A stretch of 64,000 bases of DNA, taken from Azonexus sp. (GTDB lineage: Bacteria > Pseudomonadota > Gammaproteobacteria > Burkholderiales > Rhodocyclaceae). The stretch lies in the NCBI GenBank assembly GCA_041904995.1, contig JAYRMB010000003.1, forward strand, positions 86,447 to 150,446, in the 5' to 3' direction. The translations under genes were made by a program, and so were the position numbers. This document shows, in pieces, positions 5,406 to 31,681 of the stretch. The notes beneath the pieces were generated by a model, which searched no databases, was not told where the DNA came from, and saw only the letters and a list, made by a program, of their open reading frames with translations. The stretch's first letter is position 1. The number at the start of each line of letters is the position of its first letter.

Positions 5406-5414
5406 GAAGACTCC

Positions 5415-10974: not shown

Positions 10975-10990
10975 TTGCTCAAGACAGAGC

Positions 10991-11734
10991 ATGGGTGATT
11001 TTCTCAGGACAGCTGGATTGGCGAAGCGTTTCGGTGACGCAGAATTTGCGTTAGCGCCTACGGATCTTGCCTTCGGTCGTGGGCAGTTCGTTGCTGTTAT
11101 CGGCCCATCTGGCGCGGGTAAAACAACGTTCCTGCGCTGCATGAACCGCATGATCGACCCGTCCGAGGGTAAGGTTTTCATCAACGGGCAATGCATCTCA
11201 TCAATGGGAAAGCGTGAGCTGAGGCGGCGCATTGCGATGGTCTTCCAACAACCCAATCTTGTGCAGCGCTTGAGCGCGCTCGATAACGTACTGATCGGAC
11301 GGCTAGGCTTTATGACCGGTATGCGCACATTGCTTCCATGTTTTAGGCGTGAAGACAAGATGAAGGCGCTCTCTGCGCTTGATCGAGTTGGCATGCTCGA
11401 GTACGCCGCTACTAGTTGCGTCAGCCTGTCGGGGGGGCAGCAGCAACGTGTGGCGGTCGCCAGGGCGCTCGCGCAGGAAGCCGATGTACTTCTTGCTGAC
11501 GAGCCCGTGTCCAGCCTGGATCCCGAGAATGCCGCCAAGGTCATGGCGCTCCTGAAGGACATCAATCAACAGGATGGTGTGACTGTGCTTGTAAACTTGC
11601 ATCAGATTGATCTTGCGAGACAGTGCGCCAATACCATCGTGGCATTCAAAGCTGGCCGTGTGGTTTATTTTGGCACTGGCGAGGCTTTCATGGATGAGCA
11701 TTATCAGAAAGTTTTCGTGGCGGCGGCATCGTGA
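10991..11734 (+). CDS. phnC: PhnC-like ABC ATPase
   Basis: GPSGAGKT, VFQQPNLVQRLSALDNVLIGRLG, LSGGQQQRVAVARAL, LADEPVSSLDP, VNLHQ. Confidence 0.88.
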   Translation: MGDFLRTAGLAKRFGDAEFALAPTDLAFGRGQFVAVIGPSGAGKTTFLRCMNRMIDPSEGKVFINGQCISSMGKRELRRRIAMVFQQPNLVQRLSALDNVLIGRLGFMTGMRTLLPCFRREDKMKALSALDRVGMLEYAATSCVSLSGGQQQRVAVARALAQEADVLLADEPVSSLDPENAAKVMALLKDINQQDGVTVLVNLHQIDLARQCANTIVAFKAGRVVYFGTGEAFMDEHYQKVFVAAAS

Positions 11735-12804
11735 AATCCAATCTCTCCGTAGCCCTCAATCTGTTACCCGGTGTTGGATATCTGCATCGCGGCGAATATC
11801 TGCGTGGCGCGCTCGATCTAGCATGCTTCATCATCGTTCTTGGCATCGGGCGGGGACTCCTGTCTGAAGGTGGTGTGTTTCTCTCCCTGCTTGTGATGGT
11901 CAGTTCGGCGTACCGTATGGCCTATGTAGTGCATGTGTCGGCACCGATCGTCCAGCAGGCGGGGCGGACTGCTGGAGGCTCTAAAACCATCGATCCGCTG
12001 GGCATGATTATGATGCTCAAACCGCGCTGGTGGGTGAGTGTGTTCAACTGGCCTTGGCTGTATATCGTAGTGGCTGCCATGTTGGTGGCGTATCTGTCGC
12101 GCGAGACTGAGTTGTCTTGGACGCAGATAGTCATGGGTGCTCCGGGCGCGATGGAGCTGGCGAAGGACTTTTTCTCGCCGGACTGGTCCCTCCTGCCGAA
12201 TGCTTTGGGATATGCGATGCAGACGATTGCGATCGCCGTCCTGGGTACCTTCTACGGCATACTGATCGCCGTACCAATGTCGGTGTTTTGCGCGAAGAAC
12301 CTGATGCGTGCAACGTCATCAACCCACTCGGTGTACTACGTCGCACGTTGGGGGATGGCGGTGATGCGAGCCACACCGACCTTCCTACTTGGATTGATTT
12401 TTGTCGCATGGGTAGGCTTGGGTCCATTTCCTGGCGTGCTGGCTATCACAATCTTTTCCGGCGCCTTAATGACCAAGCTGTTGTCGGAAGCTATCGAGTC
12501 GGTAAACCCGGGGCCAATCGAGGCAGCAACCGCTACGGGCGCTAATCTTTTCCACGTGATTCTCTTCTCGGTTTTTCCACAGCTGCCAACGGTATTTATT
12601 GCAATATCGCTTTACTGCCTCGAGATCAATATCCACAGCGCCACGGTTCTGGGTCTGATCGGTGCACAGGGCATAGGCATGCCCATACATGAATATCTTT
12701 CGTCCCTAGCCTATAGCAGTGCATCGGTCTATATCTTGGTCGTCATTTTCATCACGATCGGGACGGATTATGCGAGTGGTCTGGTTCGCTCGCGCATCAA
12801 ATAG
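11731..12804 (+). CDS. phnE: PhnE-like ABC permease with N-terminal TM extension
   Basis: EAIESVNPGPIEAATATGA, LEINIHSATVLGLIGAQGIG; overlaps the phnC stop. Confidence 0.85.
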   Translation: MKSNLSVALNLLPGVGYLHRGEYLRGALDLACFIIVLGIGRGLLSEGGVFLSLLVMVSSAYRMAYVVHVSAPIVQQAGRTAGGSKTIDPLGMIMMLKPRWWVSVFNWPWLYIVVAAMLVAYLSRETELSWTQIVMGAPGAMELAKDFFSPDWSLLPNALGYAMQTIAIAVLGTFYGILIAVPMSVFCAKNLMRATSSTHSVYYVARWGMAVMRATPTFLLGLIFVAWVGLGPFPGVLAITIFSGALMTKLLSEAIESVNPGPIEAATATGANLFHVILFSVFPQLPTVFIAISLYCLEINIHSATVLGLIGAQGIGMPIHEYLSSLAYSSASVYILVVIFITIGTDYASGLVRSRIK

Positions 12805-12951
12805 CGAATGAAACCACTGTTTGAAAATTGCTATTTTGACTCCGTATCCATTTTCCGGGATGGAACTACACGCACGGTCAGTTACTTGTTGTTTTCAACT
12901 TGGCGAGGATTTATTCATGAATTTGTCCGATTTCTTCATAGGAGAGATAAA

Positions 12952-13473
12952 TTGAAAAATCAGCATTGTCCGTCTACTCAGCGCAAGTCGCTGTTCATCG
13001 TGTCGAGCCCGGATATCGTCGGAGAGAAACTCAACGATAAGCATGTATTCAATGGCTTCGGCTACTCAGGAGGAAATGAGTCGCCAGAACTCAAATGGAG
13101 TGGAGCACCGATTGACACCAAGAGCTTCGCCATCACTCTCTATGACCCGGATGCTCCAACTGGCAGCGGGTGGTGGCATTGGGTCGTATATAACATTCCG
13201 GCAAATGTTACCTCTCTACCTGGGGGGGCCGGAGCGGATGGCGGAAAATCGCTACCCGAAGGGGCGGCAATGGGGCGCAATGATTTTGGTTTGAAGGCCT
13301 ATGGCGGAGCCTGCCCGCCACCTGGCAAGCAGCACCGCTACCTTTTCACAGTGCACGCTTTGATGATCGAGAAGATCGAGGTACCAGAAGACGCATCGCC
13401 CGCCTTAATCGGTTTCAACCTTACTAGTAACTGCATCGACAAGGCGGTGTTGACCACGATCTATGGATCTTAG
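12952..13473 (+). CDS. YbhB/YbcL (PEBP/RKIP-like) protein
   Basis: GGNESPELKW, SFAITLYDPDAPTGSGWWHW, GACPPPG, HRYLFTVHAL; TTG start inferred from RBS AGGAGA. Confidence 0.85.
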   Translation: MKNQHCPSTQRKSLFIVSSPDIVGEKLNDKHVFNGFGYSGGNESPELKWSGAPIDTKSFAITLYDPDAPTGSGWWHWVVYNIPANVTSLPGGAGADGGKSLPEGAAMGRNDFGLKAYGGACPPPGKQHRYLFTVHALMIEKIEVPEDASPALIGFNLTSNCIDKAVLTTIYGS

Positions 13474-13614
13474 ATGAAGGTGTGTAGAGGATGCATTGCA
13501 CCTAAAGACTTGCTAATAGCGAGCCTATATGTGCACATCTTTAAGGCCGCCATGTATCCGCTTTGCTTACCAAAGAGTCAAAGAAAACACTTTTAGAAAA
13601 CGAAAGTTAATCTT

Positions 13615-15357
13615 ATGTCAATAGATAAATTGATCGATGATCTAGTCACCCAGGCTGGAAAAATGCCAGCATCCATTTCGGTTCAACGTGCACTCACGGT
13701 GGATGGGTGTATCCCAGAGGAGGACAAGCTTGCGCCATTAACGTCAGCAGAACGTTACGCAATCGAATGCATCACACGTAAGAATCACAGCTTCGCGAGC
13801 GACGGTCAAATTAGTTTGGCTTTCCGGCCTCACGGGAGATTGCATGTTCTGCCGAGAGAGGATTTTGAAGTTCACTCTGAATTTCTTACATTAATTGGGC
13901 ATGTTGAATTAACAGAAGCTGAGCTAGTAACTTACTTGGCAACAAAGCAGTCTGCACAGTGTGCGTTGGAAGAAGAACGAACTGTCATTCTAAGTTACTT
14001 GTTCAAGCATGGGTTCGAATGCATATGTGGTGAGTTGTCGCGCTTGTCCGAACATATGGCGCCGTTAATTTATTACGTTGGCGAAATCTGTATTTCTAAT
14101 TTCTATGACATTGGAAAGTCTGATTTCAAGTTGGAAAGTACTTTGGAACATGCCTTGAAAGAGGTTCTCGAGCAGCGTGAAAATGCTCCCATAGAGTTTC
14201 TGACCACCATCTATTGTCTGCATCTGCTTTTGCAGTCTGGAAGCTATACGCGCCTCGAAGAATTGAATTCGAGCCAACTGTCTCGATCCGTTCTAGCGGA
14301 TTACTTTGATGCCAAATACGGCGTCTATCAGAAAGCGGGCGGTGTTTACTCTGATGTGGAGAGCTACTCCTTGTTTTCCTCGTCCTCTCTGGAGGATAAA
14401 GCGGTATTGCTCGCGCATATCCGGAGGAGCATAGAAACTACTAGCCGTTTTACTCGCCATATCAATGGCGTGAATCTGCGCAAGAAGGAAAACATTCTTC
14501 CAATTCCTCCTGCCCAAGTAAATGCTTCACTCCCGTCCCTGCATCGCTCTGCGCACACTATGGCCATGCTACAGCGTTGGGTGGGGCCAAACAGATCTGC
14601 TCAACAAACCTTCCTTCCCAGTTCTTTTGGGGATCTGCTCAAAGAAATAGAAATATTGCTTGCACAAAAAGCTTCGTTTCCGTCTCGACTTGAGTCCTTA
14701 ATTGATTATGTGGTCGCAGAGGCAGTGTGCAGCACACGATCTGATTTCGGCATGACTCGCGGTGCACGTGATTTCCTTAAGTTCGCCACGGCCTTGTGCC
14801 AGGGGCAAACTGAAGTTGCCAGTTCGTGGGGACAGGGAGAGTATTTCTGCCACGTAGTGCCAAACGAAGAAATGAAGGCAGCGTATTCACCAAAGACGCT
14901 CTCAATGATTCTCAATGCAATATCCGGACGCATGCGCTACAACTCTTGGCATTACGCGCCAAGCTATTTCGAAATTGCGAGCATTTCTGCTGACCGAGGC
15001 TGGTTCTATGCCCCACGAATGGCCGATATTGCAGACTGGTGCGACCAGCATCACACCGGCCATATACATGCCTCCGTTCGTTACAGCATCAGATCCCCTC
15101 TGCCCATTTGCGTACGAGATTCCGTGTTCCCGGGATTCATTGATTTGAGGTTAATGCGTCAGTCTGGCGATCCGTATAGCCGAGAGGATTTGGTCACAGC
15201 CATTGCCTACACTGAAGCTCTTCAGTTCATCTATCAGAGCTTGATGAATTTTGTATTGAAAGAAAACAAAAGTTTTGTATTTACTTTTGGCGATAAAAAG
15301 TGGATCGAAAAAGTCTGCTTACCACAGACACCAGAGATGGTTGCCGCAATCGCGTAG
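13615..15357 (+). CDS. 580-aa hypothetical protein, probable enzyme
   Basis: Long open frame inside the operon; motif-like blocks RLEELNSSQ, RHINGVNLRKKE, HVVP, RMRYNSWHY, DQHHTGH, DLRLMR; no family recognised. Confidence 0.85.
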   Translation: MSIDKLIDDLVTQAGKMPASISVQRALTVDGCIPEEDKLAPLTSAERYAIECITRKNHSFASDGQISLAFRPHGRLHVLPREDFEVHSEFLTLIGHVELTEAELVTYLATKQSAQCALEEERTVILSYLFKHGFECICGELSRLSEHMAPLIYYVGEICISNFYDIGKSDFKLESTLEHALKEVLEQRENAPIEFLTTIYCLHLLLQSGSYTRLEELNSSQLSRSVLADYFDAKYGVYQKAGGVYSDVESYSLFSSSSLEDKAVLLAHIRRSIETTSRFTRHINGVNLRKKENILPIPPAQVNASLPSLHRSAHTMAMLQRWVGPNRSAQQTFLPSSFGDLLKEIEILLAQKASFPSRLESLIDYVVAEAVCSTRSDFGMTRGARDFLKFATALCQGQTEVASSWGQGEYFCHVVPNEEMKAAYSPKTLSMILNAISGRMRYNSWHYAPSYFEIASISADRGWFYAPRMADIADWCDQHHTGHIHASVRYSIRSPLPICVRDSVFPGFIDLRLMRQSGDPYSREDLVTAIAYTEALQFIYQSLMNFVLKENKSFVFTFGDKKWIEKVCLPQTPEMVAAIA

Positions 15358-15382
15358 CTTGCACAAATAGGAGGAGAGAGAA

Positions 15383-15718
15383 ATGACTTTCGTCGTTACC
15401 GAAAATTGTATTCGCTGCAAATATATGGACTGCGTTGCGCCTTGTCCCGTGGATTGCTTCTATGAAGGTCCGGAGTTTTTGGTTATCAATCCAGATGAAT
15501 GTATCGATTGCAATGTTTGTGCAGTGGAGTGTCCAGTCGATGCAATTTATCAAGATAAAAATCTGCCGGAAAATCAAAAAGAGTTCATCGAGATAAATAA
15601 ACAACTCTCACAAATATGGCCACGTGTGACTGGTGGTACCTCTGCCCCACTGCCAGATGCTGAACATTGGCGAACGGTGAGTAATAAAAAGGGCTTCCTG
15701 GTTCTACCAGAAAACTGA
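15383..15718 (+). CDS. fdxA: 7Fe (3Fe-4S/4Fe-4S) ferredoxin, FdxA type
   Basis: [29 protein letters not shown]...CIDCNVC...CP; RBS AGGAG. Confidence 0.9.
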
Positions 15719-15853
15719 AATCAGTTTGATCGAGTGCGACCGGCTAGCCTTTCTATTTGCAAGCCTACAAAGTAGATCTTAACAACTTAAGGAGTACCCC
15801 CGGCTCTGCCGGAGGATTGTTACCAACAAACCTGTCACGAGGAGTGAGGCAAA

Positions 15854-16756
15854 TTGAGTGATCTGAAGTTGTCAGAAATAGTGCGACGAAAAATTTCGTC
15901 GGTCAAAGGTATCCAGGAGACTTCGATATCCGCAGAGAGCTCCATTAAGGATGATTTGGGAATTTCGTCGATGGAGTTTATTACCATTTTGACCGAAGTT
16001 GCTGAGGTGCTGCGTATTGATCTGATGAAGTTTTCAGAGAAAGAAATTGTCACCGCTCTTACTGTCGGCGACCTGGAGCGAGTAATTGCCTCGAAGCTTC
16101 CCAAGCAAGGAGAAAAAGTGATCAATTTTAGTTCTGACATCGTATTGAAGGGATGGGGGGTTGTACTTAGGCCTTGGATGGAGCAAGACGTTGGGCAGAT
16201 TGTAGAGTCGGCTACAGACCCGCTTGTTTGGAAATATACGACTGAGGCACTTTCGAACAAGGGCGACGTTGTTAAATATGTTGCGCGGGCTATGGCTGAT
16301 CGAGAGGCGGGTAAGCGCTACTCTTTCGCAATTTGTCTGGAAGGTAGCGATGCAATCGTGGGTAGCTCTAGCTTCGGGAATATGTCTGCAAAAGATGGCC
16401 GACTCGAAATCGGTTGGACTTGGTTAGCCCCGGAATATCACGGGCAAGGACTTAACAACGTCGTCAAGTACCTCATGTTGAAATATGGTTTTGAGGAGCT
16501 CGATTCACACCGTATAGAGTTTAAGACGGACAACGCAAACCCTCGATCGTGCGGAGCGCTTGAAAAGATTGGTGCAAAGCGGGATGGCGTTTTGCGTTCG
16601 CACACCTTAATGCATGATGGGCGCTATCGGGATACGGCGTACTACTCGATACTCAACGAAGAATGGGCTCAGGTGAACGCTGCGCTTTGCCATCGGATAG
16701 CGAGCGTGCTTGAGCAAGGGGCTGATTACTCACAAAACGTATCCATTGCTGGATGA
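15854..16756 (+). CDS. Acyl carrier protein fused to a RimJ/RimL-type GNAT acetyltransferase
   Basis: Residues 1-82 ACP-like (DDLGISSMEF, TVGDL); the rest GNAT (EIGWTWL, HRIEFKTDNAN, GVLRSH, RDTAYYSIL). Confidence 0.82.
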   Translation: MSDLKLSEIVRRKISSVKGIQETSISAESSIKDDLGISSMEFITILTEVAEVLRIDLMKFSEKEIVTALTVGDLERVIASKLPKQGEKVINFSSDIVLKGWGVVLRPWMEQDVGQIVESATDPLVWKYTTEALSNKGDVVKYVARAMADREAGKRYSFAICLEGSDAIVGSSSFGNMSAKDGRLEIGWTWLAPEYHGQGLNNVVKYLMLKYGFEELDSHRIEFKTDNANPRSCGALEKIGAKRDGVLRSHTLMHDGRYRDTAYYSILNEEWAQVNAALCHRIASVLEQGADYSQNVSIAG

Positions 16757-16770
16757 TGCAATGAGAGTGA

Positions 16771-16798
16771 GGGGCGCGAGTATGCATACTCGCGCCCC
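16771..16798. repeat. Perfect 28-bp palindrome
   Basis: GGGGCGCGAGTATGCATACTCGCGCCCC equals its own reverse complement; intergenic. Confidence 0.95.
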
Positions 16799-16830
16799 AT
16801 CAGCGATATTCCTCGTGTGAAGGTTCAATA

Positions 16831-17997
16831 ATGCAAATGCCAGAAAATGCTGTGCGGCTATCGGGTGATCCGATAACCCGCGGGGTCCAGCATGGGCGAA
16901 AGCTGGCCCCAGAAATCAAACGCCTTCTTTCTAATGACTGTGCGCGGATTAACTGCCATCTATCACGCCCTGTTCCGGAGGAGCTGATCTACGCTTATGT
17001 GAGGAAATTCGCTTTTGAAATAGAGAGGGAATTACCTTTGATCGCGGCAGAGATTGAAGGGCTCTCCAAGGGCGCGGAGATTTCTTATGAGCAAGCAGTT
17101 CTCCTCCAGGTCCGCCGTGAAATTTTAATGCACCTGCGTAAAGGTGCTAACAGCGACTGCTCTACATTTTCGCTACCGATAAATAAACGGGTTGTTGCTC
17201 AAACTATCGACCTCAATAGTTCCTTTGCAGAATTTGGCACGGTATTCCAAATTGAACCTTGGTGCGGTAGCCCCGAAATCCTGATGTTCTCTTTCGCTGG
17301 TTTGCTGGGGTACATGGGCATGAATTCCAGTGGCCTAGCTATTGCGATCAATATGGTTTCTTCTGATGATTGGCGTCCAGGCGTTCCTCCCTATCTGTTG
17401 GTGCGCCACTTGCTGGAGCTACACACCGTTGAGGAGTGTCTTGAGGCAATAGCAAATATTCGGCGAAGCAGTTCCCGCAGTTTCACTATCTGCGACTCGA
17501 CGCGCAGTGTTACGGTCGAAATGACCGCTACTTCATTCGCCGTTCTGGAAGGGAAGAAGTTGTTGCACACCAATCATTATTTGTCTCCTGATTTGGCCCC
17601 TTACGACACCATCAATTTTCTAGCTCGGCACTCTTCCATGCAGCGGCTTGCGAAGCTTCATACCTTAACGCAAAACCTTCCAGAAACGCCGGCCGTCAGC
17701 GAGCTATTCAATCTCTTCGCTGATCACGAAAACCATCCTGTCGGATTATGTAGTCACGCCGATGGCGATCTGCGCCGGACGGAAACAGTTGCCACGGCAG
17801 TAATGCATCCGGCGACTGGAACGATGTACGTTCGTAAGGGAATGCCGTGCTGCGGCTGTGAAATTGAAAAGTTCACGATGGCCAGCATGGATGTTAAATC
17901 CGACATGCAGGCTATTTCCGCCGCGACTCATCGAGTAAGTGATAGTCGGCCTGACCTGGTGCCGGGCGTTCAATTCGAAAATATCGGGCAGTTATGA
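16831..17997 (+). CDS. C45-family Ntn hydrolase/acyltransferase (isopenicillin-N acyltransferase-like)
   Basis: RGVQHG, EIEGLSKGA, DCST (Cys110 candidate nucleophile), AQTID, GMNSSGLAIAIN, HTNHY. Confidence 0.85.
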   Translation: MQMPENAVRLSGDPITRGVQHGRKLAPEIKRLLSNDCARINCHLSRPVPEELIYAYVRKFAFEIERELPLIAAEIEGLSKGAEISYEQAVLLQVRREILMHLRKGANSDCSTFSLPINKRVVAQTIDLNSSFAEFGTVFQIEPWCGSPEILMFSFAGLLGYMGMNSSGLAIAINMVSSDDWRPGVPPYLLVRHLLELHTVEECLEAIANIRRSSSRSFTICDSTRSVTVEMTATSFAVLEGKKLLHTNHYLSPDLAPYDTINFLARHSSMQRLAKLHTLTQNLPETPAVSELFNLFADHENHPVGLCSHADGDLRRTETVATAVMHPATGTMYVRKGMPCCGCEIEKFTMASMDVKSDMQAISAATHRVSDSRPDLVPGVQFENIGQL

Positions 17998-18839
17998 ATC
18001 ACAGACTCCAATCTTCAAGTTCTGACGCGACAGAACTCTCCCCCAACGCACTGATGGCCACAGCAAAAGAAATTACCGCTTCGGACGGAGAGAAAATTCG
18101 TTGGGTTGAGTTTGGTTGTGGGAGGCCGCTTGTGGTCTCGCCGGCTCTGGGGACCCCCCTTGCATCGTGGCTGCCCGCGTTATTGGTGTTGTCAGCTGAC
18201 TTCAGAATATTTTTTGCCTTAACCCGAGGAGGCTGCGAGGGGGCCACGCCGAAAGGATTGGCTAATTTAACTGTCCAGCGTCGAGGGGAGGATTTGGCCG
18301 AGCTTATCAACTCGTTAGATCACAGAGAGTACTGCATGGTTGCGCACTCGAGCGGCGTTTCTCCCGCAGTTGTTAGCCTGAAGCAACTAAATACGCCGCC
18401 GTCGCACGTCTGTTTAATCTCCGCCAGATACGGTGCGGGCCAGCCTATTGGCGCCGAAGATTTGCTTCAGCGCGCTAGAAAAGACTCTGGATTCATGAAC
18501 GTTGTTCAGTCGATTGTTGTTAATTACTCTCCGCCGTCCGCTGCCGGCGTAATGCGAGAGCTATTGCGTGATTTTGGCCGGCTTGAAGCATTGCTTCGAG
18601 CCTTTGATCTATCACGTACCTTCAGCTACACCGAACCCTTGTGCGCCGGTATCGCGATGACTTTCGTTATGGCCGAGCATGATCCAGACGACGTGCGAAA
18701 GACGACTCGCCAAATAGTCGATGCCCAATTGGGAGAGCCATGGGCATTGGTTGATGTTCCAGATGTAGGTCACTTTTTTGTACAGGACGATGGCGAGGCG
18801 GCGGCAGCACTTATCGCTACACGCCTTTCTTCGCAATAA
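17994..18839 (+). CDS. Alpha/beta hydrolase (thioesterase-like)
   Basis: Nucleophile elbow AHSSG and C-terminal VGHF; ATGA overlap with the C45 gene. Confidence 0.75.
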   Translation: MNHRLQSSSSDATELSPNALMATAKEITASDGEKIRWVEFGCGRPLVVSPALGTPLASWLPALLVLSADFRIFFALTRGGCEGATPKGLANLTVQRRGEDLAELINSLDHREYCMVAHSSGVSPAVVSLKQLNTPPSHVCLISARYGAGQPIGAEDLLQRARKDSGFMNVVQSIVVNYSPPSAAGVMRELLRDFGRLEALLRAFDLSRTFSYTEPLCAGIAMTFVMAEHDPDDVRKTTRQIVDAQLGEPWALVDVPDVGHFFVQDDGEAAAALIATRLSSQ

Positions 18840-18934
18840 GTACGCCAGCAGAATACTTTGCCAAGATGGCTGATTTGCCAGTGCCAAAATCTGCGGGATG
18901 TTGCCGTGATAAATAAAAATGAGGATGAAAACGT

Positions 18935-19588
18935 ATGGCCCACTTTGAGAACGTTGAAACGATAGCCAAAACACAGTGGTACGCCTCTCCGACAGCAGAA
19001 ACAGCGCACAAAGTTGCGCAATGCGTAGATGACGGCGGTGTCGCGATGTTTCCTGCCGATACGGTTTACGGATTTTTCGGCAATGCGCTCGACCCAAAGT
19101 CGTATGAGCGCGTCTACGACATCAAAAGGCGAGAGCGTCGGAAACCCTTTGTTATATACACGGTTGCATCTCGGGTTGAGCAGGTCGCCTACCTCAACCC
19201 AATGGCGCAGCGATTAATTGAGCGCTTCTGGCCGGATGAGGCACTTGCTCTGGTTCTTCCCAAAAAGGACATCATTTCGAACAGTTTTACTGATGGGAAG
19301 GACACGGTTGCAGTGATGTCGGCTAGCGGAGGCTTTATCTCCGAGGTGATGCGTACCTGCAATTCAATCATGTTTGGAACGACTTGCAATATTTCTGGCA
19401 TGCCAGAAATTACTAAGATCGACGATGCACACGAGTTTAATGAGCAAGTAAATATCGCCGTTGGTGGAGACAGCCTTTTGAGACACAGTGTGCCGTCAAC
19501 CATTGTCGACTGTACTGGTGCTGTGCCAAAAATCCTTCGAGAGTCGGCAATTCCGGCTTCAGTTGTATTTGAAGTGTGTCGCGCTTGA
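18935..19588 (+). CDS. Divergent TsaC/YrdC/Sua5-family adenylating enzyme
   Basis: GGVAMFPADTVYG, IKRRERRKP, GTTCNISG, PSTIVD; stand-alone YrdC domain. Confidence 0.85.
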   Translation: MAHFENVETIAKTQWYASPTAETAHKVAQCVDDGGVAMFPADTVYGFFGNALDPKSYERVYDIKRRERRKPFVIYTVASRVEQVAYLNPMAQRLIERFWPDEALALVLPKKDIISNSFTDGKDTVAVMSASGGFISEVMRTCNSIMFGTTCNISGMPEITKIDDAHEFNEQVNIAVGGDSLLRHSVPSTIVDCTGAVPKILRESAIPASVVFEVCRA

Positions 19589-19702
19589 TGTGGTAGCAAA
19601 GAACACATGTTTTCCCGCAAAAATGTGCGTGAAAATTCCGTGCTCATAAGCGCAAATTTTTATTCGCTTACATCTTGAAATCTATATTGTCGACATACTC
19701 CA

Positions 19703-20869
19703 ATGCCTAGACTATTTCTGCTTGTTCTTTTTCTGACGGTAGCAATCAATACTGGTATGGGAATGATTATTCCCGTCATGCCAACCCTTCTCAAAGAGTT
19801 TGGTTTTAGCACGTTAGGACTATCGCTACCCTTCGCCGCCCTGATCATTGCACGGATAGTTTCAAAGCCTTGGGCGGGTGTCGCACTCAATCGTCTGGGT
19901 GGGCGCTACCTTATGTTGATGGTTTTCGCCGTCTACTCACTTGCGTTTTTCTTGTACCCGGTCTGCCATAGCCAATTTGGCTTTATTTTGCTGAGAGTGC
20001 TGGAGGGCTTTGCCGAAGGCGTGGGTGGAGTCGTCATAACGAATTCAGCAATCGTGATGACGACTGGCCTACGAAACCGTGGGGTTCTTATGGGCTACTT
20101 CTCAGCAGCATTCGGCGTGGGCTTCATTGTCGGACCAATAATCGGTTGGCTAGCACTCGAAACCGTGGGTACCACTGGAATGTTCTTTGTAGGTGGATGT
20201 GTCGGCCTGCTCGGATTGGTTGCAAGTGCTATGTTGCCGCGAAGAAATAATGAGTCGTTGCCGCCAAAAACGAGCCTAAGAGAGCTTGCCAATAATTTGG
20301 GATATCTCATTCCATACATCCCCAGCGTACTTCGAAGAGCGTTGTTTTTCTCTTTCATGATTATTGTGCCGTTATTTGCCACGGGTCGATTAGGGGTTTC
20401 TGCAGAAAAGGTCGGCTTACTGTTTACAGCGTCTGGAATAATCTCAACAGTATGTATGTTTTTTACTGGGAAACTCGCGGATTTCTTTGACCCCAAGAAA
20501 TTAGCGGCTTGGTGCCTCGCAGGGATGGGCATTCTGATCGCCATATGCGGATTCACAAATTCGGTTGAGGCATTTTTGGTTTTCTTTCTTGCGGAAACAC
20601 TACTTTTCGCAATTATGTTGCCTGCGGGTACGAAAGTATTTGCAGTCGCGATTGACAATCATCCTTTGCGCGAGCCAATGGTTGGTTCATTCGGTAGCTT
20701 TACCGAAGTATGCACCGTCATTTTGGCCTTTCTGCTTCCGGCTATTTTAGAAATTAGTATCACCGGCGCCTGGGTCTTTATGGGGGGGCTTTGTGTCGTT
20801 GGTGCTGTGCTATTGCTTCAATGGCAGCCCATTTCCGGGGCCAGGCGCGAAGTCGTAAGCACGAGCTGA
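19703..20869 (+). CDS. MFS transporter (probable exporter)
   Basis: About 12 hydrophobic segments, motif-A-like NRLGGR, LRVLEGFAEG, GFIVGPIIG. Confidence 0.88.
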   Translation: MPRLFLLVLFLTVAINTGMGMIIPVMPTLLKEFGFSTLGLSLPFAALIIARIVSKPWAGVALNRLGGRYLMLMVFAVYSLAFFLYPVCHSQFGFILLRVLEGFAEGVGGVVITNSAIVMTTGLRNRGVLMGYFSAAFGVGFIVGPIIGWLALETVGTTGMFFVGGCVGLLGLVASAMLPRRNNESLPPKTSLRELANNLGYLIPYIPSVLRRALFFSFMIIVPLFATGRLGVSAEKVGLLFTASGIISTVCMFFTGKLADFFDPKKLAAWCLAGMGILIAICGFTNSVEAFLVFFLAETLLFAIMLPAGTKVFAVAIDNHPLREPMVGSFGSFTEVCTVILAFLLPAILEISITGAWVFMGGLCVVGAVLLLQWQPISGARREVVSTS

Positions 20870-20969
20870 ACGACAGCATGCCGATGGCTGAGGTCGACCA
20901 TTGATCGACACAAAAGCACGTCGTAGCAACGCTCAATTTGACTGTTAGAAAATGATCTAAGGTGTGCGA

Positions 20970-22121
20970 ATGCAAATATCCAATGGAAGAAAAACCCCAT
21001 TTCACGATGAGCACGTAAAGGCCGGAGGTAGATTGATGTCTATCTCCGGGTGGGTCAGGCCGCTCCACTATGGTTCGCCTGCAATGGAGATTTCTGCTAT
21101 TCGGAATGCGCTTGGACTTTTTGATCTCCACCCCATGAGCAGGCATATTATCGAAGGCCCCGACGCTCTTGCATTTATGCAGCTCGTAGTAACAAGCGAT
21201 GTAAAACGAGCGATATCCAATTCCGCGGCCCAGTACACATGCTTTTGCGATGAACGGGGCGGAATCATTGATGACGTGTTGATCTTCCCGAGGTCTGCCG
21301 ATGAGTTCCTGATCACTTCCAGTGTTGCGGCTGCAGAAACGCTGGGGGGGTGGATGAGGCGGTGGGTCCAGGAGAGTGGTTTGAATGTTCAATTGCGTGA
21401 TATCAGTGCATTCGAAACCCAATTTGCATTACAAGGGCCGCGCAGCCTGGAACTCGTTCGCAAAGAGTTTGGGGCGAAGGTCGCTGCCTTAAAGCACATG
21501 CAATTTGTCGAGACAGCGCTCAACGGCACTCCTGTGTTCTTGGCCCGCACTGGGTATACGGGAGAGTGTGGCTTTGAGTTTCTTGCTGATGCTCATCAAG
21601 CAGCAGATCTATGGCAGTACTTGCTTGAATCTGGCGCGGAATTCGGTATCGCACCGTTCGGAATCATGGCCGCTCAAACGCTACGCATTGAAAAAGGATA
21701 CGTACTGAATGGTGTAGATATGAGTAGCCAAAACAATCCCTATGAGATTGGCCTTGATTGGACGGTTTGTACGGACAAGGAGGGTTTTCTGGGGAAAGAT
21801 GAACTGTTACGCGCGAAGGCTCAAGGCGTTAAGCGACGCTTTCGCAGATTCTATATCGAGGGAACGGACATAGTACCCAGCGGCACAGAGATCTATGCTC
21901 AAGAGAGCGAAGTCGGTCGAGTTACTAGTTGCTGTAATAGCCCCACGTTAGGTCGTGTCATTGGAATGGGCTTGGTTGATACGTCGATTAGCGGAGACTG
22001 TCCATACTACGTGCGAAGAGGTAATCAGCGATGGCAGGTGTCTTTCATCGAAAGGGCGTTTTATGACCCAGAGGGCACCAGGCTAAAAGCGATACTGCCC
22101 GAAGAGAGTTTGTTGGGCTGA
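20970..22121 (+). CDS. GcvT-family folate-binding aminomethyltransferase-like protein
   Basis: RKTPFHDEH, GLFD, GGIIDD, FALQGP, RTGYTGECGFE, LRIEKGY, GRVTS; no gcvH or gcvP nearby. Confidence 0.9.
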   Translation: MQISNGRKTPFHDEHVKAGGRLMSISGWVRPLHYGSPAMEISAIRNALGLFDLHPMSRHIIEGPDALAFMQLVVTSDVKRAISNSAAQYTCFCDERGGIIDDVLIFPRSADEFLITSSVAAAETLGGWMRRWVQESGLNVQLRDISAFETQFALQGPRSLELVRKEFGAKVAALKHMQFVETALNGTPVFLARTGYTGECGFEFLADAHQAADLWQYLLESGAEFGIAPFGIMAAQTLRIEKGYVLNGVDMSSQNNPYEIGLDWTVCTDKEGFLGKDELLRAKAQGVKRRFRRFYIEGTDIVPSGTEIYAQESEVGRVTSCCNSPTLGRVIGMGLVDTSISGDCPYYVRRGNQRWQVSFIERAFYDPEGTRLKAILPEESLLG

Positions 22122-22124
22122 ACG

Positions 22125-22862
22125 ATGTGCGGAGACAATTTTTCTTATTCCGTTAGACACAATATCTGCATAACGACAAGGGCGATCTGTCTACTGATGG
22201 CATGCGTACTGCCATTTGAATCTTTCGCAGCGGAGGATGGATTTTCGATCGCGAACAGCATCACCCGTCTTCAGATACGTAATACGGTCGACACAAATGA
22301 CATTACTAGCGTTACCGCTTCATCTTTTTTGCAAGCAAAAAACAAGACGTACTTCTTGGGAATTGTCGACTATCAAGTGGATCATGAGCGGCACAACATC
22401 AATGGCCGCATCGAGGGAAATCTGGGCGGTCCATTTCCCGGCAGTCCTTTGGGTTGGGTTGCGCGTGGCAGAGTGTATTACCAGCAAAACTCGGTTGCTG
22501 CCGCGGGCGTACAGCTGAGCTTCAATGAGTTGCCCGAATTGGGGCCCGTCCTTAAAAAGTTAGGTATTACAACCTTCGTACAATTGCTCCGCAATACCAA
22601 TGATCCTTATTTCGGCGATTCCGAGGTTCTTCACTACTACAGTGTCGATATTGTCCCTAAACAATTAGCGCTCCGCGGATACAACGTGTTCAACAGCGCG
22701 GGGAAAGATAAGGCTGTTCGCAACTCTTGGGCAGACCTAATTTATTCGTTAAATGACAGGTTCGACGTTTACTACCGGATAAACGATGTGAGCCGGAAAA
22801 ATGGATATCTCGGCCCACCTGGAGCAACGCAATATTTAGGGTTTCGGATCAACTGGTATTAG
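22125..22862 (+). CDS. Putative exported/outer-membrane beta-barrel protein
   Basis: Signal-like ...ACVLPFESFA, alternating beta-strand pattern, aromatic C-terminus YLGFRINWY. Confidence 0.55.
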   Translation: MCGDNFSYSVRHNICITTRAICLLMACVLPFESFAAEDGFSIANSITRLQIRNTVDTNDITSVTASSFLQAKNKTYFLGIVDYQVDHERHNINGRIEGNLGGPFPGSPLGWVARGRVYYQQNSVAAAGVQLSFNELPELGPVLKKLGITTFVQLLRNTNDPYFGDSEVLHYYSVDIVPKQLALRGYNVFNSAGKDKAVRNSWADLIYSLNDRFDVYYRINDVSRKNGYLGPPGATQYLGFRINWY

Positions 22863-22953
22863 TGCCGACCCCGCTTACGCCTTGACGCTAAACAGCGCAT
22901 CTCTAAAGGTTGTCCAATTCATTCCTTTTAACTTTTTATACCAGGCAATTCAG

Positions 22954-24462
22954 ATGCTAGAGCTCCTTAATTCAGTGGTCGCACGCATGCCCCAAAGTAC
23001 CGGGGTTCTGCACACCATCTCGCAGGGTCATAGACGTTGCTATACCTATCCAGAGGTATTTGAGGATGTCCTCCGTGTACGCTCATACCTTGATTGTCTC
23101 GGCCTCAAGTCTGGATGTTCTATAGGTGTTCGTGCGGACAACAGCTACGAGTGGATACTTCTTGACCTGGCATGCCTTTCCTTGGGCGTTGTCCTTGTAC
23201 CTTTCGATCCGAAAGTTCAGGAGTCGCCAGAGATTCTTATCGAACACTACGGACTGAGTGCGCTATTCCATGATCGACCAGAAGGGGTTGCGCATCGCAA
23301 TTCCATCCAAATATGCACCGTCCTCGAACACCCTAAATCCCTCGACGAAAGTGACGCACCCTTCTTCCAATTTGAGGCAGACTCAATCGTATGCATGAAG
23401 TTTACGTCGGGGACAACCAGTCTACCAAAAGGAATTCCGGCTAAGGCCAAAAACATTGCTGATTGCGTACATGTCATTCAAGATGCATTTCACCATACAG
23501 CCGACGACTTGATTCTTTCGTTTCTCCCGCTCTATCTCTTGCAGCAACGGTACTTCATCTACTCGTCCATTTTGTTCGATATTCCTCTTGTCGTTGTACC
23601 GTACATTCAGTCGTTTTCGGCCATCTCAAATCTACATCCAACGGTTGTGATGGCGGTCCCCCATTTTTTAGACACGCTATTTCAGCGCTATCATCAGGCG
23701 AACACTGCGATAGGAGGTGGCCCGGACTTAAACTCGCAAGTGTCCGAGGCTATCTTTGGCAAGCGGTTGCGGTATCTGTGGACAGGTTCTGCTCCAATAT
23801 CAATTGACCTTCTCCGTCGGTATGAAGCACTGGGAATACCCGTCTATCAAGGCTACGGGACTGCGGAAACCGGCATTCTCACTAAGAATGTATCCGGAAA
23901 TAATCGCTACGGCAGCGTCGGCCGAGTGTTGCCGGGACGAGAGATTAAGATTAGCCAATCTGGAGAGATTCAGGCGCGTGTCCATGCTGAGCTCAACACG
24001 CACTACTCTGCAGGAAGCATATCCAAGCTCGGACAGCGCTTTCTTGATGCCGATGGATTCTTCCCGACGGGTGATCTTGGCTATTTCGATGATGATGGCT
24101 TTCTGTACATCACCGGAAGACTAAAGAACATTATCGTTTTATCGAGTGGTCGGAAAATCAATCCGGAGCCAATCGAAACAGCGATTGCATCTGGTGTCGA
24201 CATCGAGGCCTGTGTTCTCTTCGCGTCACGCGCGGGGCGGCTGACAGCCATTGTCGATTCGGCTCTCTCCGAGCAACTTGTCGCTAAGCGATTAGCAGAG
24301 GTAAACAGTACGCTTGCGGCGGAAGATCATATTGCAAAATTCTTGGTTGTTAAACACGCGTTTTCAAACGAGAGTGGGCTGAGAAATGCGCAAGGGAAGA
24401 TTGTCCGCGATCGCGTATACCAAAATTTCAGAGTACGACTCCAAGAATTGGGCGTGGAATAG
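22954..24462 (+). CDS. AMP-dependent acyl-CoA/acyl-ACP ligase (ANL superfamily)
   Basis: FTSGTTSLPKG, YQGYGTAETG, TGDLG, GRLKNIIVLSSGRKINP, terminal Lys motif QGKIVR. The ORF could start at TTG 22882. Confidence 0.92.
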   Translation: MLELLNSVVARMPQSTGVLHTISQGHRRCYTYPEVFEDVLRVRSYLDCLGLKSGCSIGVRADNSYEWILLDLACLSLGVVLVPFDPKVQESPEILIEHYGLSALFHDRPEGVAHRNSIQICTVLEHPKSLDESDAPFFQFEADSIVCMKFTSGTTSLPKGIPAKAKNIADCVHVIQDAFHHTADDLILSFLPLYLLQQRYFIYSSILFDIPLVVVPYIQSFSAISNLHPTVVMAVPHFLDTLFQRYHQANTAIGGGPDLNSQVSEAIFGKRLRYLWTGSAPISIDLLRRYEALGIPVYQGYGTAETGILTKNVSGNNRYGSVGRVLPGREIKISQSGEIQARVHAELNTHYSAGSISKLGQRFLDADGFFPTGDLGYFDDDGFLYITGRLKNIIVLSSGRKINPEPIETAIASGVDIEACVLFASRAGRLTAIVDSALSEQLVAKRLAEVNSTLAAEDHIAKFLVVKHAFSNESGLRNAQGKIVRDRVYQNFRVRLQELGVE

Positions 24463-24470
24463 CAAACTTC

Positions 24471-25310
24471 ATGCTGTTGCATTCTATAAATTGGCCACCG
24501 TTTAATTCGACGGATTCCGTTAGCGCAACCCGGCCTCAAATCGAATCTGCATTACCAGGACTCGAAGGTTCTTGGTCGATGTCCGTTCATAGCACGCAAC
24601 CAGACGAGCCCGTCTTAGAACTCACAGTACATTTCGTTGAGTTCGAGAGTCGGCTCTCTGTGCTGGGCAATGGTAAAACGTTAGCCGGCTCGTCGTGCCC
24701 AACGCAAATAGGGTTCAGCGCATCTTGTCGCAAAGCGGAGTTTTCATCGGGACGACAGGCCGCGCGATGTGCCCTAACGCAACTCTCCCCCGCGCTGGCC
24801 AGCGTGTTAGTACCTATTGGTGGTGATCGAGAGCCACTTTGGCCGCAAGGCGTAGTGGGAAGTATCACGCATGTCTCGGGCTTGGCGGGAGCTGCGGTAG
24901 GTCTGTCAAATTCGTGGCGCTACCTGGGAATTGATCTTGAGCAGACTGCAGGTGGCAAAGCACAGTCGGCGTTACGCGCTTTTGTGCTCGACAGTGCGGA
25001 ACTATCGTTGCTGCAACGACGCTGCGAAGCGATTGGGCAACTTAACCTGGATACTCATGTTACTCACGTCTTCAGCGCGAAGGAGTGCTTGTACAAAGCA
25101 GCCTTCCCGAGTGTGCGCCGCTTCTTCGGTTTTTCCGAAGCCAGGTTGTGCGAATACGATTTTCTTTCTGCCGATCGTGGACCTGAGGTTCGGCTTGCGC
25201 TTGAAATTACGGATGGGCTTGGCGGCGAATTTGTCGCGGGTAGCCGCTGGTGGGTTGAGGTTTGGCGAATAAAAACCCCCTATACATATCTGTCTGTGTT
25301 GGCGTGCTAG
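24471..25310 (+). CDS. 4'-phosphopantetheinyl transferase (EntD/Sfp type)
   Basis: RKAEFSSGRQAAR, PLWPQGVVGSITH, LGIDLE, FSAKECLYKA. Start uncertain. Confidence 0.9.
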   Translation: MLLHSINWPPFNSTDSVSATRPQIESALPGLEGSWSMSVHSTQPDEPVLELTVHFVEFESRLSVLGNGKTLAGSSCPTQIGFSASCRKAEFSSGRQAARCALTQLSPALASVLVPIGGDREPLWPQGVVGSITHVSGLAGAAVGLSNSWRYLGIDLEQTAGGKAQSALRAFVLDSAELSLLQRRCEAIGQLNLDTHVTHVFSAKECLYKAAFPSVRRFFGFSEARLCEYDFLSADRGPEVRLALEITDGLGGEFVAGSRWWVEVWRIKTPYTYLSVLAC

Positions 25311-25377
25311 CGGCGGAGATAAAACACTGACGTACGTTATTAGAAGACTAAATTCAAACTCAAAGAGGAGGGCACGC

Positions 25378-25530
25378 ATGAAAGCGTGGACCTGTATGTG
25401 TATGGCGGTATCTATGACGAAGTGGCGGACATAGGGGAGGGTATCGACCCTAGTGCGCAACAGGGAGAGATATAAAACATTGACAGTGTCTGAGTGGCGC
25501 TTTTACCAAACCTGATTTGGAAATGACAGG
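25378..25530 (+). pseudogene. Decayed rubredoxin-like gene
   Basis: Strong RBS GAGGAGG, then MKAWTC / frameshift / GIYDE..EGIDP / stop / KPDLEM; resembles the rubredoxin consensus with lost Cys residues. Confidence 0.5.
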
Positions 25531-25599
25531 CGTTTTGACGTGGCTGTTGCAAAGCGCAAGTTCCCACAGTTTTATCTTCAATTGCTTTAAAGGCTAGCT

Positions 25600-26412
25600 A
25601 TGACTTATATCGTACCTTCAGAATTTGCCAAGAAAATGGTGGATGCAGGCGAATCAAAAATCTGCATGTCCACTCGAGATACGTTGATCCGTGCGTACAT
25701 GGCTGGCGCGGTCTTGGCACTATCTGCCGCATTTGCCATATTTCTTAGCGTGCAAACTCAACAACCGTTAATAGGAGCATTGTTCTTTCCAGTCGGTTTC
25801 TCGATGCTCTATTTAATGGGGTTTGATTTACTGACTGGCGTGTTCGTCCTAGCCCCGTTGGCATTGATTGATAGACGGCCCGGTGCAACGATAAAAGGTG
25901 TCCTTCGAAATTGGAGTTTGGTCTTTTTCGGCAATTTTGTGGGCGCCCTCACCGTAGCAATGATGATGGCAGTCGTGTTTACTTATGGCTTCTCCACGTC
26001 TCCTGGTCCAGTTGGAGAAAGAATTGCCAGTATCGCTGAAGGACGGACCCTAGGGTATGCACAGTACGGTTTGGCGGGCTGGATTACCATCTTCTTTCGC
26101 GGCGTGCTGTGCAATTGGATGGTCTCGATGGGAGTCGTAGGGGCCATGATCTCAACAACTGTGGGCGGCATGGTCATCGCAATGTGGATGCCAATTATGT
26201 TGTTCTTCGCAATGGGATTCGAACACTCAGTGGTCAACATGTTCTTATTCCCTTCGGCGATGATTATGGGTGGCAATTTTACAATTGCTGACTATTTTAT
26301 TTGGAACGAAATTCCGACCGTTCTCGGCAATATGCTCGGCGGCTTGGTGTTTACAGGCATGGCACTTTATAGCACCCATGTGAGAACGGGTGCAAAACGC
26401 AGCGTTACCTAA
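25600..26412 (+). CDS. Formate/nitrite transporter (FNT) family channel
   Basis: LLTG, FFGNFVG, GVLCNWMV, GFEHSVVNMF, LGNMLGG. Confidence 0.93.
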   Translation: MTYIVPSEFAKKMVDAGESKICMSTRDTLIRAYMAGAVLALSAAFAIFLSVQTQQPLIGALFFPVGFSMLYLMGFDLLTGVFVLAPLALIDRRPGATIKGVLRNWSLVFFGNFVGALTVAMMMAVVFTYGFSTSPGPVGERIASIAEGRTLGYAQYGLAGWITIFFRGVLCNWMVSMGVVGAMISTTVGGMVIAMWMPIMLFFAMGFEHSVVNMFLFPSAMIMGGNFTIADYFIWNEIPTVLGNMLGGLVFTGMALYSTHVRTGAKRSVT

Positions 26413-26768
26413 TCTCAAAGCCATCAAGGCATGGAGCATGGCTCATTTTTAGTAACTATTCACGCACGACAGGTTGATCGAAATCGAGGCCAAGCTACTA
26501 CCTATAGTAGCTCGAAAATGAACCAATCCTCGAAATTTGTCGTATTTAGCACGGCGTCATGGTGGCGCTGAATGCATTGTTCTACAAGTGGTTGTTTTTC
26601 ACGGTTTTCGGAAAAGCCCCGCTGAATGGATACCATTTTTATATCTGCCAGCCCGGCTTGTTATCAAAGCGGCCGTATCTTTCTGGCGCTTCGTTGCACA
26701 TCCGAATCTAAGTAATACATCACTTTTCTTCTTCACTGCCGCACATGGCACAACCCCAAGGAACCCAC

Positions 26769-27989: not shown

Positions 27990-28249
27990 GTATCGGTAAG
28001 GGATACTAGCCGATGGCGCCTTGGGATTGGCGAAAGGGAAGACGCTAGCACTCTTCTTTGCCTCGATTAGCCTTGAATAGCTCGCCTAATCTTTGAGAAA
28101 GTTCTGATGCTGTTCTGGTGTCATCGGCCCATCGGGGGGGGGGCAGTTCCTGATTATCTAGAGTTCCCAAGCTTGGCGTGGTATCTGCCGGAATTTTCAA
28201 GAGTACGGGCTGCCAGCGGTCAATAGAAATCTGTTGGACAACAGGCAAC

Positions 28250-28356: not shown

Positions 28357-28361
28357 CCGAC
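28357..28361. repeat. Target-site duplication CCGAC (right copy)
   Basis: Matches 4409-4413. Confidence 0.92.
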
Positions 28362-31673: not shown

Positions 31674-31681
31674 TTACTCGG

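Follow-up and report, generated by a model that had tools for sequence, protein, structure and literature searches.

The TsaC/Sua5 proteins (EC 2.7.7.87), which supply threonylcarbamoyl-adenylate (TC-AMP) for the threonylcarbamoyladenosine (t6A) modification of tRNA, are among the few truly universal enzymes, and every protein of their Pfam family, PF01300, is named 'L-threonylcarbamoyladenylate synthase' by automatic pipelines. The present work concerns a divergent, stand-alone YrdC/TsaC-like member of this family (hereafter the target), which is encoded at positions 18935 to 19588 (+ strand) of a 64,000-nucleotide stretch of Azonexus sp. DNA (GenBank assembly GCA_041904995.1, contig JAYRMB010000003.1, positions 86,447 to 150,446; hereafter the window). 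Its repurposing away from t6A is well supported, and for its subfamily the automatic label, which is also the database label of its homologs, is probably wrong. The target is predicted to be a catalytically competent enzyme of the Sua5/TsaC fold that has gone from tRNA modification to the carbamoyl-adenylate chemistry of an amine other than threonine, a reading to which we give an even chance.

In the Sua5 of P. abyssi, K56xR58 and S143xN145 form the ATP/adenylation tetrad, L-threonine is hydrogen-bonded by Thr35, His67, Arg121, Ser181 and Arg195, bicarbonate is held by Arg195 and the Ser143 backbone, and T33 is also counted among the threonine-site residues (PMC10321239, PMC6004061). A beta-hydroxy amino acid is required by canonical TsaC and TsaC2 (PMC7430679). 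The YrdC-like domains of HypF, TobZ, GdmN and NovN have the same fold and form an acyl-adenylate of carbamate, and TobZ and GdmN are a precedent for the fold in secondary metabolism. YciO is a stand-alone PF01300 paralog of about 200 amino acids that does not replace TsaC and is linked to RNase AM and rRNA, and pandoravirus TsaN, a TsaD-TsaC-SUA5-TcdA fusion, employs a TsaC-type domain outside tRNA modification (t6ADP/t6ATP). Among these systems the target works most like TsaC/Sua5, yet it differs from them in its threonine contacts, in its equivalog score and in its lack of the partner enzymes.

The open reading frame (ORF) of the target was exactly as first proposed, with an ATG start and 217 codons for amino acids, and a GAGGA Shine-Dalgarno sequence was located 9 nt 5' of the ATG. 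Residues 31-204 matched positions 3-178 of the 178-position PF01300 profile (Sua5_yciO_yrdC) with an E value of 4.7e-33, far beyond chance, and a six-frame hmmsearch identified the target as the sole PF01300 ORF of the window. The SUA5 domain is absent, so that the protein is single-domain like TsaC. An AlphaFold2 model for which 21 subfamily sequences were used had a predicted local distance difference test score (pLDDT) of 90.6, and its best Foldseek matches were the catalytic domains of P. abyssi Sua5, S. tokodaii Sua5 and T. maritima TsaC2 (E ~1e-17, template modelling (TM) score 0.80-0.84, root-mean-square deviation (rmsd) 1.9-2.6 A, 23-29% identity), with values of TM 0.82, rmsd 1.9 A and 29% identity for P. 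abyssi Sua5. The weaker structural neighbours were YciO (TM 0.76), HypF (0.71), E. coli TsaC (0.66) and TobZ/GdmN (~0.52). The reading frame, the PF01300 match, the motifs and the model with its Foldseek ranking thus indicate a real ORF with a Sua5-type domain. The target nevertheless scored under both TsaC equivalog cutoffs (TIGR00057, 110.3 vs 123.2; NF007919 for type 1 TsaC, 47 vs 175), and a tblastn search with E. coli TsaC at E <= 10 did not even recover it. E. coli TsaB, TsaD and TsaE had no homolog in the window by tblastn (best E = 0.28), so the absence of tsaD/B/E claimed in the original prediction for the element holds for the whole 64 kb. All neighbours of the target in the window are transport or small-molecule genes.

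Active-site residues were mapped by HMMER alignment and by a MAFFT alignment of 23 subfamily sequences, 98 generic TsaC/Sua5 sequences, and E. coli TsaC and YciO. The target sequence contains FPADTVYG, K64xR66, FWPDEAL, GTTCN, PSTIVD and RESAI, and hence all the motifs that had been quoted (PADTVYG, KxR, WPDEAL, TTCN, PSTIVD and RESAI). The tetrad positions K64, R66 and N152 and the residues T43, S188 and R202 (the last corresponding to the bicarbonate-binding Arg) are invariant in the subfamily, and T189 is likewise kept. The tetrad residue Ser143 corresponds to Thr150, which is T in 21 of the 23 subfamily sequences and S in the other two; strictly, the tetrad, which published work takes as its filter for including sequences, therefore reads K-R-T-N. 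Three of the five threonine contacts are kept (T43, S188, R202), whereas two are lost: Arg121 is replaced at position 128 by Met (20 sequences) or Leu (3), as against Arg in E. coli TsaC, in E. coli YciO and in all 98 generic sequences, and His67 is replaced by Tyr75 in 23/23. T33, which does not vary among the 98 generic sequences, corresponds to Ala41 in the subfamily. Four positions that are invariant in the generic enzymes are also replaced (G by a variable residue at 101, T by A/S105, A by C/V151 and G by S/T204), and further changes are F48 for G/A and D179 for G. The PGPLT motif of TsaC/Sua5 has become P-x-(E)-A-L-A/S, and a basic loop, K-R-R-E-R-R-K (residues 64-70), is specific to the subfamily.

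Not every motif difference had the same value. Positions 48, 75, 105, 128 and 150/151 discriminated the subfamily, as did 204 for the core subfamily, so that the differences originally pointed out at T105, S150/A151 and G204 stand against the 98 generic sequences. The PADTVYG difference does not: about 70 metagenomic PADTVY proteins (L049-L117) carry A41 and are otherwise canonical (T105, R128, S-A-N, G204), and A41 was therefore rejected as a subfamily marker. Since Ala replaces the 'invariant' Thr33 in these canonical-like proteins, Thr33 is not universally required in the family. Many of them adjoin a serine hydroxymethyltransferase (SHMT) gene, an arrangement that we take to resemble the housekeeping sua5-glyA neighbourhood of Gram-positive bacteria. 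The loss of the threonine-contacting Arg (VAVM for VAVR), which the original prediction had not raised, is the most telling change of the subfamily. Because canonical TsaC and TsaC2 need a beta-hydroxy amino acid, the absence of both Arg121 and the His that contacts the hydroxyl group speaks for another substrate. The active-site residues are invariant among members that are only 40% identical to one another, which indicates selection on catalysis.

A word-indexed search returned a first tier of about 12 clusters (65-94% identity), to which Marinobacter sp. LM1 belongs, a second tier of about 10 clusters at 43-49%, and a third tier of generic enzymes at <=34%. A hidden Markov model search of 1.84 billion representatives gave 24,699 PF01300 hits, among which the score exceeded 338 bits in only 3 representatives (50% identity level); a graded tail of about 20 more, from 253 down to ~140 bits, was without Arg128 and mostly read T-C-N. 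Locus counts came from pattern-based scans and are lower bounds; the scan of 185,579 species genomes revealed at least seven loci, in Sideroxyarcus, Hydrogenophilus thiooxidans, a gammaproteobacterial metagenome-assembled genome (MAG), Paenibacillus, a Paenibacillaceae MAG, a Chloroflexia MAG and Ca. Thiomargarita. The carriers of the module are marine, groundwater, soil and wastewater bacteria. In a simple neighbour-joining distance tree, the close clade was separate with 99% bootstrap support and the mid clade had 71%. Arg-less proteins nested around the core in the point tree with a bootstrap of <=56% for the wider shells, so that a single well-supported origin of all Arg128-less PF01300 proteins was not established. 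The rare, patchy spread is a poor fit to the essential, universal t6A function, and a canonical tsaC is assumed, from the universality of t6A, to lie elsewhere in the host genome.

In the window, the target lies within a 19-kb island (9300-28360) in which all module genes are on the + strand. The features of the island and of its left side are as follows.

4647-7376, - strand: insertion sequence (IS) of the IS21 type, with IstB at 4647-5405 and an IstA-like protein at 5415-7376, further left of the island.
8258-9271, - strand: transposase of the IS481 family, at the left edge of the island.
10081-12804, + strand: PhnD/PhnC/PhnE-type ATP-binding cassette (ABC) importer, with solute-binding protein at 10081-10974, ATPase at 10991-11734 and permease at 11731-12804.
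12808-13473, + strand: protein of the PEBP/YbhB-YbcL family with an N-terminal extension.
13615-15357, + strand: unk580, a protein of 580 amino acids with a conserved His-rich motif (H479/H480/H483/H485) and many invariant Arg residues.
15383-15718, + strand: ferredoxin (Fer4 + DUF3470) of 111 amino acids.
15854-16756, + strand: acyl carrier protein (ACP) fused in frame to a GNAT domain (Acetyltransf_3), with the carrier motif DLGISSMEF.
16831-17997, + strand: C45-family autoproteolytic acyltransferase/hydrolase (PF03417; NF040521, 222.8 bits vs cutoff 85).
17994-18839, + strand: alpha/beta-hydrolase.
18935-19588, + strand: the target.
19703-20869, + strand: major facilitator superfamily (MFS) transporter, conserved beside the pair of YrdC-like and GcvT-like genes.
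20964-22121, + strand: GcvT-like folate-binding aminomethyltransferase homolog (PF01571, 3.9e-72), of all partners the one most constantly found with the target.
22125-22862, + strand: protein of 245 amino acids whose N-terminus resembles a signal peptide and whose C-terminus is aromatic, perhaps a beta-barrel of the outer membrane; conserved in Marinobacter (L001) and Sideroxyarcus (L008).
22882-24462, + strand: AMP-binding acyl ligase, a probable acyl-ACP/CoA ligase.
24471-25310, + strand: Sfp-type 4'-phosphopantetheinyl transferase (PPTase).
25600-26412, + strand: protein of the formate/nitrite transporter family, found in island copies only.
26745-27989, + strand: TyrB/AspC-type aminotransferase (PRK09257, 569.7 bits), the last gene of the island.

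The neighbourhood was compared with loci from Marinobacter (L001-3), Sideroxyarcus (L008), Paenibacillaceae (L004, L011, L025/26, L036), Chloroflexia (L007), Hydrogenophilus-type bacteria (L009, L041, L042), a 36%-GC organism (L040) and several others. In 17 of the 19 informative loci (non-redundant, >=37% identity, enough sequence), a GcvT-like gene was found at most two genes downstream of the YrdC-like gene, adjoining an MFS gene, and this synteny spans Proteobacteria, Firmicutes and Chloroflexi. A homolog of unk580 lay upstream in about 14 of the 19, one version being 496 amino acids long and recognised only by profile comparison (99.8% probability). Ferredoxin homologs were found in Sideroxyarcus (78%) and in the distant L040 (51%). 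TyrB/AspAT-type aminotransferases recur widely across the loci, and in L010 and L040 TyrB/AspC homologs (36-39%) adjoin the YrdC-like gene. The PhnCDE-type importer is also present in Marinobacter (L001), Sideroxyarcus (L008) and L040 (8964-11625), whereas it is absent from the Firmicute and Chloroflexi loci, which have the MFS gene only. A true SerC (phosphoserine/phosphohydroxythreonine transaminase; 478.7 vs cutoff 253) is an addition of the Firmicute loci, and other loci add an SHMT gene or one like that of methylenetetrahydrofolate reductase. The set of ACP, GNAT, C45, acyl-ligase and PPTase genes was seen in the proteobacterial close clade alone; in other lineages there is a P450 with an adenylation-peptidyl carrier protein, or a condensation domain of the nonribosomal peptide synthetase (NRPS) type. 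In Marinobacter, the ACP-GNAT region was split by gene callers into an 84-amino-acid carrier and a 198-amino-acid GNAT. No Peptidase_M22/Kae1-like gene was present in any locus examined.

The gene upstream of the target homolog differed in some loci. In L010 (Gammaproteobacteria MAG JAHFRQ010000001.1), no unk580 was found within 10 kb on either side, and its place directly upstream was taken by a Lys/Orn N-monooxygenase (PF13434, 1.5e-102) and a cupin-MetRS-like fusion (PF07883 + PF09334); the cupin/MetRS architecture defines bacterial hydrazine synthetases (PMC12376268). Downstream lies a saccharopine-dehydrogenase-like gene, whose product may take over from the FAD oxidase that usually releases the hydrazino acid. 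The region 5494-14250 of L010 is an uncharacterised hydrazine-synthetase cluster that also contains the aminotransferase, YrdC-like, GcvT-like and MFS genes. The N-hydroxylase and the cupin-MetRS-like hydrazine synthetase were absent from the window, and among the related loci they were found only in L010. In L021/22, the gene directly upstream encodes a member of the heme-oxygenase-like di-iron family (DUF3050, 9.7e-73); the contig ends at this gene, so unk580 may still lie further upstream.

The island has a GC content of 0.50 within 0.64-GC DNA, and the flanks of the window look like an ordinary high-GC proteobacterial chromosome. Copies of the whole island at 99-100% identity were detected in the metagenomes of several studies, which sampled activated sludge, wastewater, groundwater and freshwater sediment; the right flanks of these copies were different. 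The right border is sharp: metagenome contigs were 99-100% identical up to 28356-28358 and then diverged. The low GC content, the IS elements at the edge, the sharp border and the near-identical copies in other contexts therefore point to a horizontally mobile island. One contig (L020) is without positions 8278-9287, i.e. without the IS481 copy, and otherwise identical, so that this element is a recent, later insertion. No annotated plasmid copies of the island were found.

Two of the conserved partners were characterised further. unk580 had no relative in Pfam, NCBIfam or the Protein Data Bank (PDB) by sequence and profile searches; its 61 homologs, which are widespread in metagenomes, are all annotated 'hypothetical'. 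Its model was of high quality (pLDDT 89, predicted TM score 0.89), and a Foldseek comparison with the PDB gave nothing below E 0.07, the only resemblance being a weak GAF-like one. A diverged Kae1/TsaD-like transferase was considered for unk580 and rejected, as there was no ASKHA-like match, the PDB searches were empty and the TsaD tblastn search was negative. The gene adjoins a ferredoxin in two distant lineages, and this neighbourhood suggests that unk580 might be a redox metalloenzyme. The GcvT-like protein scored just below the cutoffs for true T-proteins of the glycine-cleavage system (288.5 vs 300; 226.5 vs 235.85), and its NCBIfam matches include DmdA, trimethylamine N-oxide demethylase and sarcosine oxidase. 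No gene for GcvH (H-protein) or another lipoyl carrier, or for the P-protein (GcvP), was found in the clusters, where small ORFs gave only a weak PP-binding match.

Taken together, the missed equivalog cutoffs, the lost threonine contacts, the separate clade, the patchy spread, the mobile island with its small-molecule and transport genes, and the conserved synteny argue that the target is repurposed and is not an ordinary t6A TsaC, in agreement with the original prediction. The target probably represents a neofunctionalised PF01300 subfamily within an undescribed conserved module. In the open literature we found no TsaC/YrdC-like enzyme paired with a GcvT-like protein and no description of unk580; a search for TsaC/YrdC-like enzymes in natural-product clusters, or for GcvT in clusters, returned nothing relevant, and YrdC/Sua5 or GcvT-like genes were unmentioned in the reviews and papers on N-N bonds.

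From its conserved residues, it is plausible that the target forms the carbamoyl-adenylate of a non-threonine amine. It would N-carboxylate the amine with CO2 or bicarbonate, as TsaC does, and would then adenylate the carbamate with ATP to give a reactive carbamoyl-adenylate. The amine would not be L-threonine; it would be small and non-proteinogenic, and the aminotransferase and folate enzymes encoded nearby would make or process it. The neighbouring genes indicate transamination and the chemistry of glycine, serine and one-carbon units. Hints of a phosphorus oxyanion on the amine come from the PhnCDE-type importer, from SerC and from the basic loop, and a hint of hydrazines comes from the hydrazine synthetase of L010. 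These substrate hints are leads, not findings, and the candidate amines would accordingly be derived from glycine or serine, bear a phosphorus oxyanion or, in the hydrazine-synthetase locus, be a hydrazine. A nucleophile of the same metabolite might then trap the activated carbamoyl group, or a partner enzyme might assist the capture, and a carbamate or urea linkage would result. TC-AMP is stated to decay spontaneously to a cyclic carbamate, 5-methyl-2-oxazolidinone-4-carboxylate (Lauhon 2012, as cited in PMC6004061), which makes an intramolecular capture without a dedicated transferase chemically reasonable. In the proteobacterial version, the acyl ligase, the PPTase-primed ACP-GNAT, the C45 acyltransferase and the hydrolase would add and process an acyl group, and the resulting small molecule would cross the membrane via the MFS and ABC systems. 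Should this hold, the target would be the first stand-alone TsaC-type enzyme shown to provide small-molecule metabolism with a carbamoyl-adenylate in the absence of a Kae1-type transferase, and the known routes to carbamate and urea linkages would be extended. A testable set of conserved partners, a T-protein homolog and a 580-amino-acid protein without structural relative, comes along with it, and Marinobacter sp. LM1, a cultured carrier with a complete genome, puts experiments on this unstudied module within reach.

Several observations weigh against the proposed chemistry, the whole of which was deduced from neighbouring genes and residue conservation. In most members Thr takes the place of the catalytic Ser of SxN, a conservative change that may nonetheless affect catalysis; the basic loop may bind ATP or PPi (pyrophosphate) and not the substrate; and Arg121 may contact the carboxylate of L-threonine or another part of it. 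With no Kae1/TsaD-like acceptor transferase, and with unk580 unlike one, the downstream step is without precedent. The accessory genes vary between lineages, and the final products are therefore probably not the same everywhere. An enzyme of the HypF/TobZ type, which would make unsubstituted carbamoyl-AMP from carbamoyl phosphate or from carbamate and ATP for transfer of the plain carbamoyl group by a partner, is rather unlikely. HypF is a clear structural neighbour (TM 0.71), K64, R66, N152 and R202 are common to both proteins, and the target matches E. coli HypF at Met128 (VGVM vs VAVM), Ser204 and the small residue 41, including a pocket without the amino-acid-binding Arg; this resemblance rests on one aligned HypF sequence and does not amount to membership. 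The YrdC-like domains of class III carbamoyltransferases do adenylate carbamoyl phosphate, but HypF, TobZ and GdmN always have a fused Kae1-like domain (PMC9633730), whereas the target stands alone (TM 0.71 to HypF and 0.52 to TobZ/GdmN) and unk580 is without an ASKHA-like fold. Moreover, in both structure and sequence Sua5 is a much nearer relative of the target than HypF or TobZ, and T43 and S188, amino-acid contacts in Sua5, are invariant in the subfamily and not in HypF. A residual TC-AMP synthase dependent on Thr or Ser, whether as an extra or horizontally gained TsaC or as a source of TC-AMP for an acceptor other than tRNA, is very unlikely. The Sua5-type fold, the nearly intact tetrad, the three remaining threonine contacts and the public annotation are compatible with it, canonical TsaC is somewhat relaxed in its choice of amino acid (PMC7430679), and the t6ATP made by TsaN shows that TC-AMP is used independently of tRNA (PMC10484737). 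TsaN, however, is threonine-specific and has a canonical tetrad and its own TsaD-like transferase, whereas the target scores below both equivalog cutoffs, has lost His67, carries Met, Leu or Val here in place of the Arg of the generic enzymes, and is rare and patchy in distribution. It also stands beside neither tsaB/D/E nor the usual tsaC neighbours, with no TsaD-like acceptor enzyme nearby and a constant synteny with non-tRNA genes, the GcvT-like and MFS genes among them. That catalysis has been lost and the target is a binding or regulatory protein, as suggested for the RNA-related YciO, is extremely unlikely: YciO, which has only trace TC-AMP activity (PMC12506659), illustrates a non-t6A role of PF01300 proteins, but the E. 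coli protein has R-x-L and S-L-M in place of the tetrad K, R and N while keeping T41 and R128, and the target shows the opposite, with active-site invariance at 40% mutual identity and no rnm neighbour in the window.

The same or similar chemistry could instead serve a catabolic or salvage module, in which an imported amine (an aminophosphonate, natural or man-made, or an N-methylated compound) is broken down; we regard this as unlikely, though to be taken seriously. The PhnCDE-type importer and the possible outer-membrane protein would bring the compound in, and unk580 with ferredoxin, the GcvT-like protein, the aminotransferase and the target would degrade it. The importer fits uptake and catabolism as well as product re-uptake, and this too counts against the biosynthetic part of the proposed chemistry: its solute-binding protein passes TIGR01098 (170.5 vs cutoff 112) and its permease passes the PhnE model TIGR01097 (233.9 vs 216.7), both being phosphonate/phosphite transporter cutoffs, its ATPase is 46% identical to E. 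coli PhnC, and it recurs in the very distant lineage of L040. Stand-alone GcvT-family enzymes are typically demethylases in catabolism, and the mobile, near-identical occurrence of the island across activated sludge, wastewater and groundwater is a pattern typical of catabolic islands. On the other hand, the Sfp-type PPTase, the ACP and the acyl ligase of the cluster, and the NRPS-type parts, P450 and hydrazine synthetase of related loci, are hallmarks of biosynthesis, and the importer is missing from the Firmicute and Chloroflexi versions. Despite the importer, neither C-P lyase (PhnG-M) nor PhnO was found in the window or in 25 related loci; PEP (phosphoenolpyruvate) mutase, phosphonatase and PhnY/Z were not probed. 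The original proposal of small-molecule synthesis is thus favoured by the PPTase, ACP and acyl ligase genes and by the NRPS-type and hydrazine-synthetase genes elsewhere, while the importer keeps the catabolic explanation alive.

A more detailed version of the non-threonine carbamoyl-adenylate reading can be drawn, which we consider decidedly doubtful. It would join TsaC-type carbamoyl-adenylate formation on an aminophosphonate (e.g. aminomethylphosphonate) or on a hydrazine or hydroxylamine, the T-protein homolog and unk580 in one undescribed pathway. In this speculative pathway, the T-protein homolog would move the aminomethyl carbon of the compound to or from tetrahydrofolate, and unk580, as a ferredoxin-linked metalloprotein of new fold, would perform the step carried out in L010 by the N-hydroxylase and the hydrazine synthetase. 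Taken to its extreme, this reading would have the folate enzyme form or cleave an N-CH2-P unit with neither PEP mutase nor C-P lyase involved.

Scans for promoters and terminators in the window gave matches no more frequent than in shuffled sequence. One promoter-like match (11/12) was located at 9785-9812, 5' of the gene for the solute-binding protein. Short contigs from several operon genes, including the target, were present in RNA-type libraries; these are only suggestive of transcription of the operon, since they are contigs for which DNA carry-over is possible, and one run had a flat, DNA-like depth.

The clusters of the outer Arg-less relatives contained aminotransferases, or an MFS gene with a 2-hydroxyacid dehydrogenase and a short-chain dehydrogenase/reductase (SDR), and none of those examined had a housekeeping context of the tsaC type. 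A second conserved operon, which surrounds another PF01300 protein without Arg128, was observed in L047 (2531-16189) and also in L037 and L032. It encodes a GH3 amido-synthetase, a hydrolase, an enolase-superfamily protein, two SDRs and aconitase-like large and small subunits, followed by the YrdC-like protein, an FAA-hydrolase, two 2-hydroxyacid dehydrogenases, HlyD and an MFS transporter.

Finally, a second low-GC islet was observed in the window. Two of its genes, at 31044-33091 (- strand), match the candidate anti-phage defence system HEC-01, with HEC-01A being an AAA_21/AAA_15 ATPase of 469 amino acids (E 5.9e-100) and HEC-01B a protein of 209 amino acids (E 1.6e-15).

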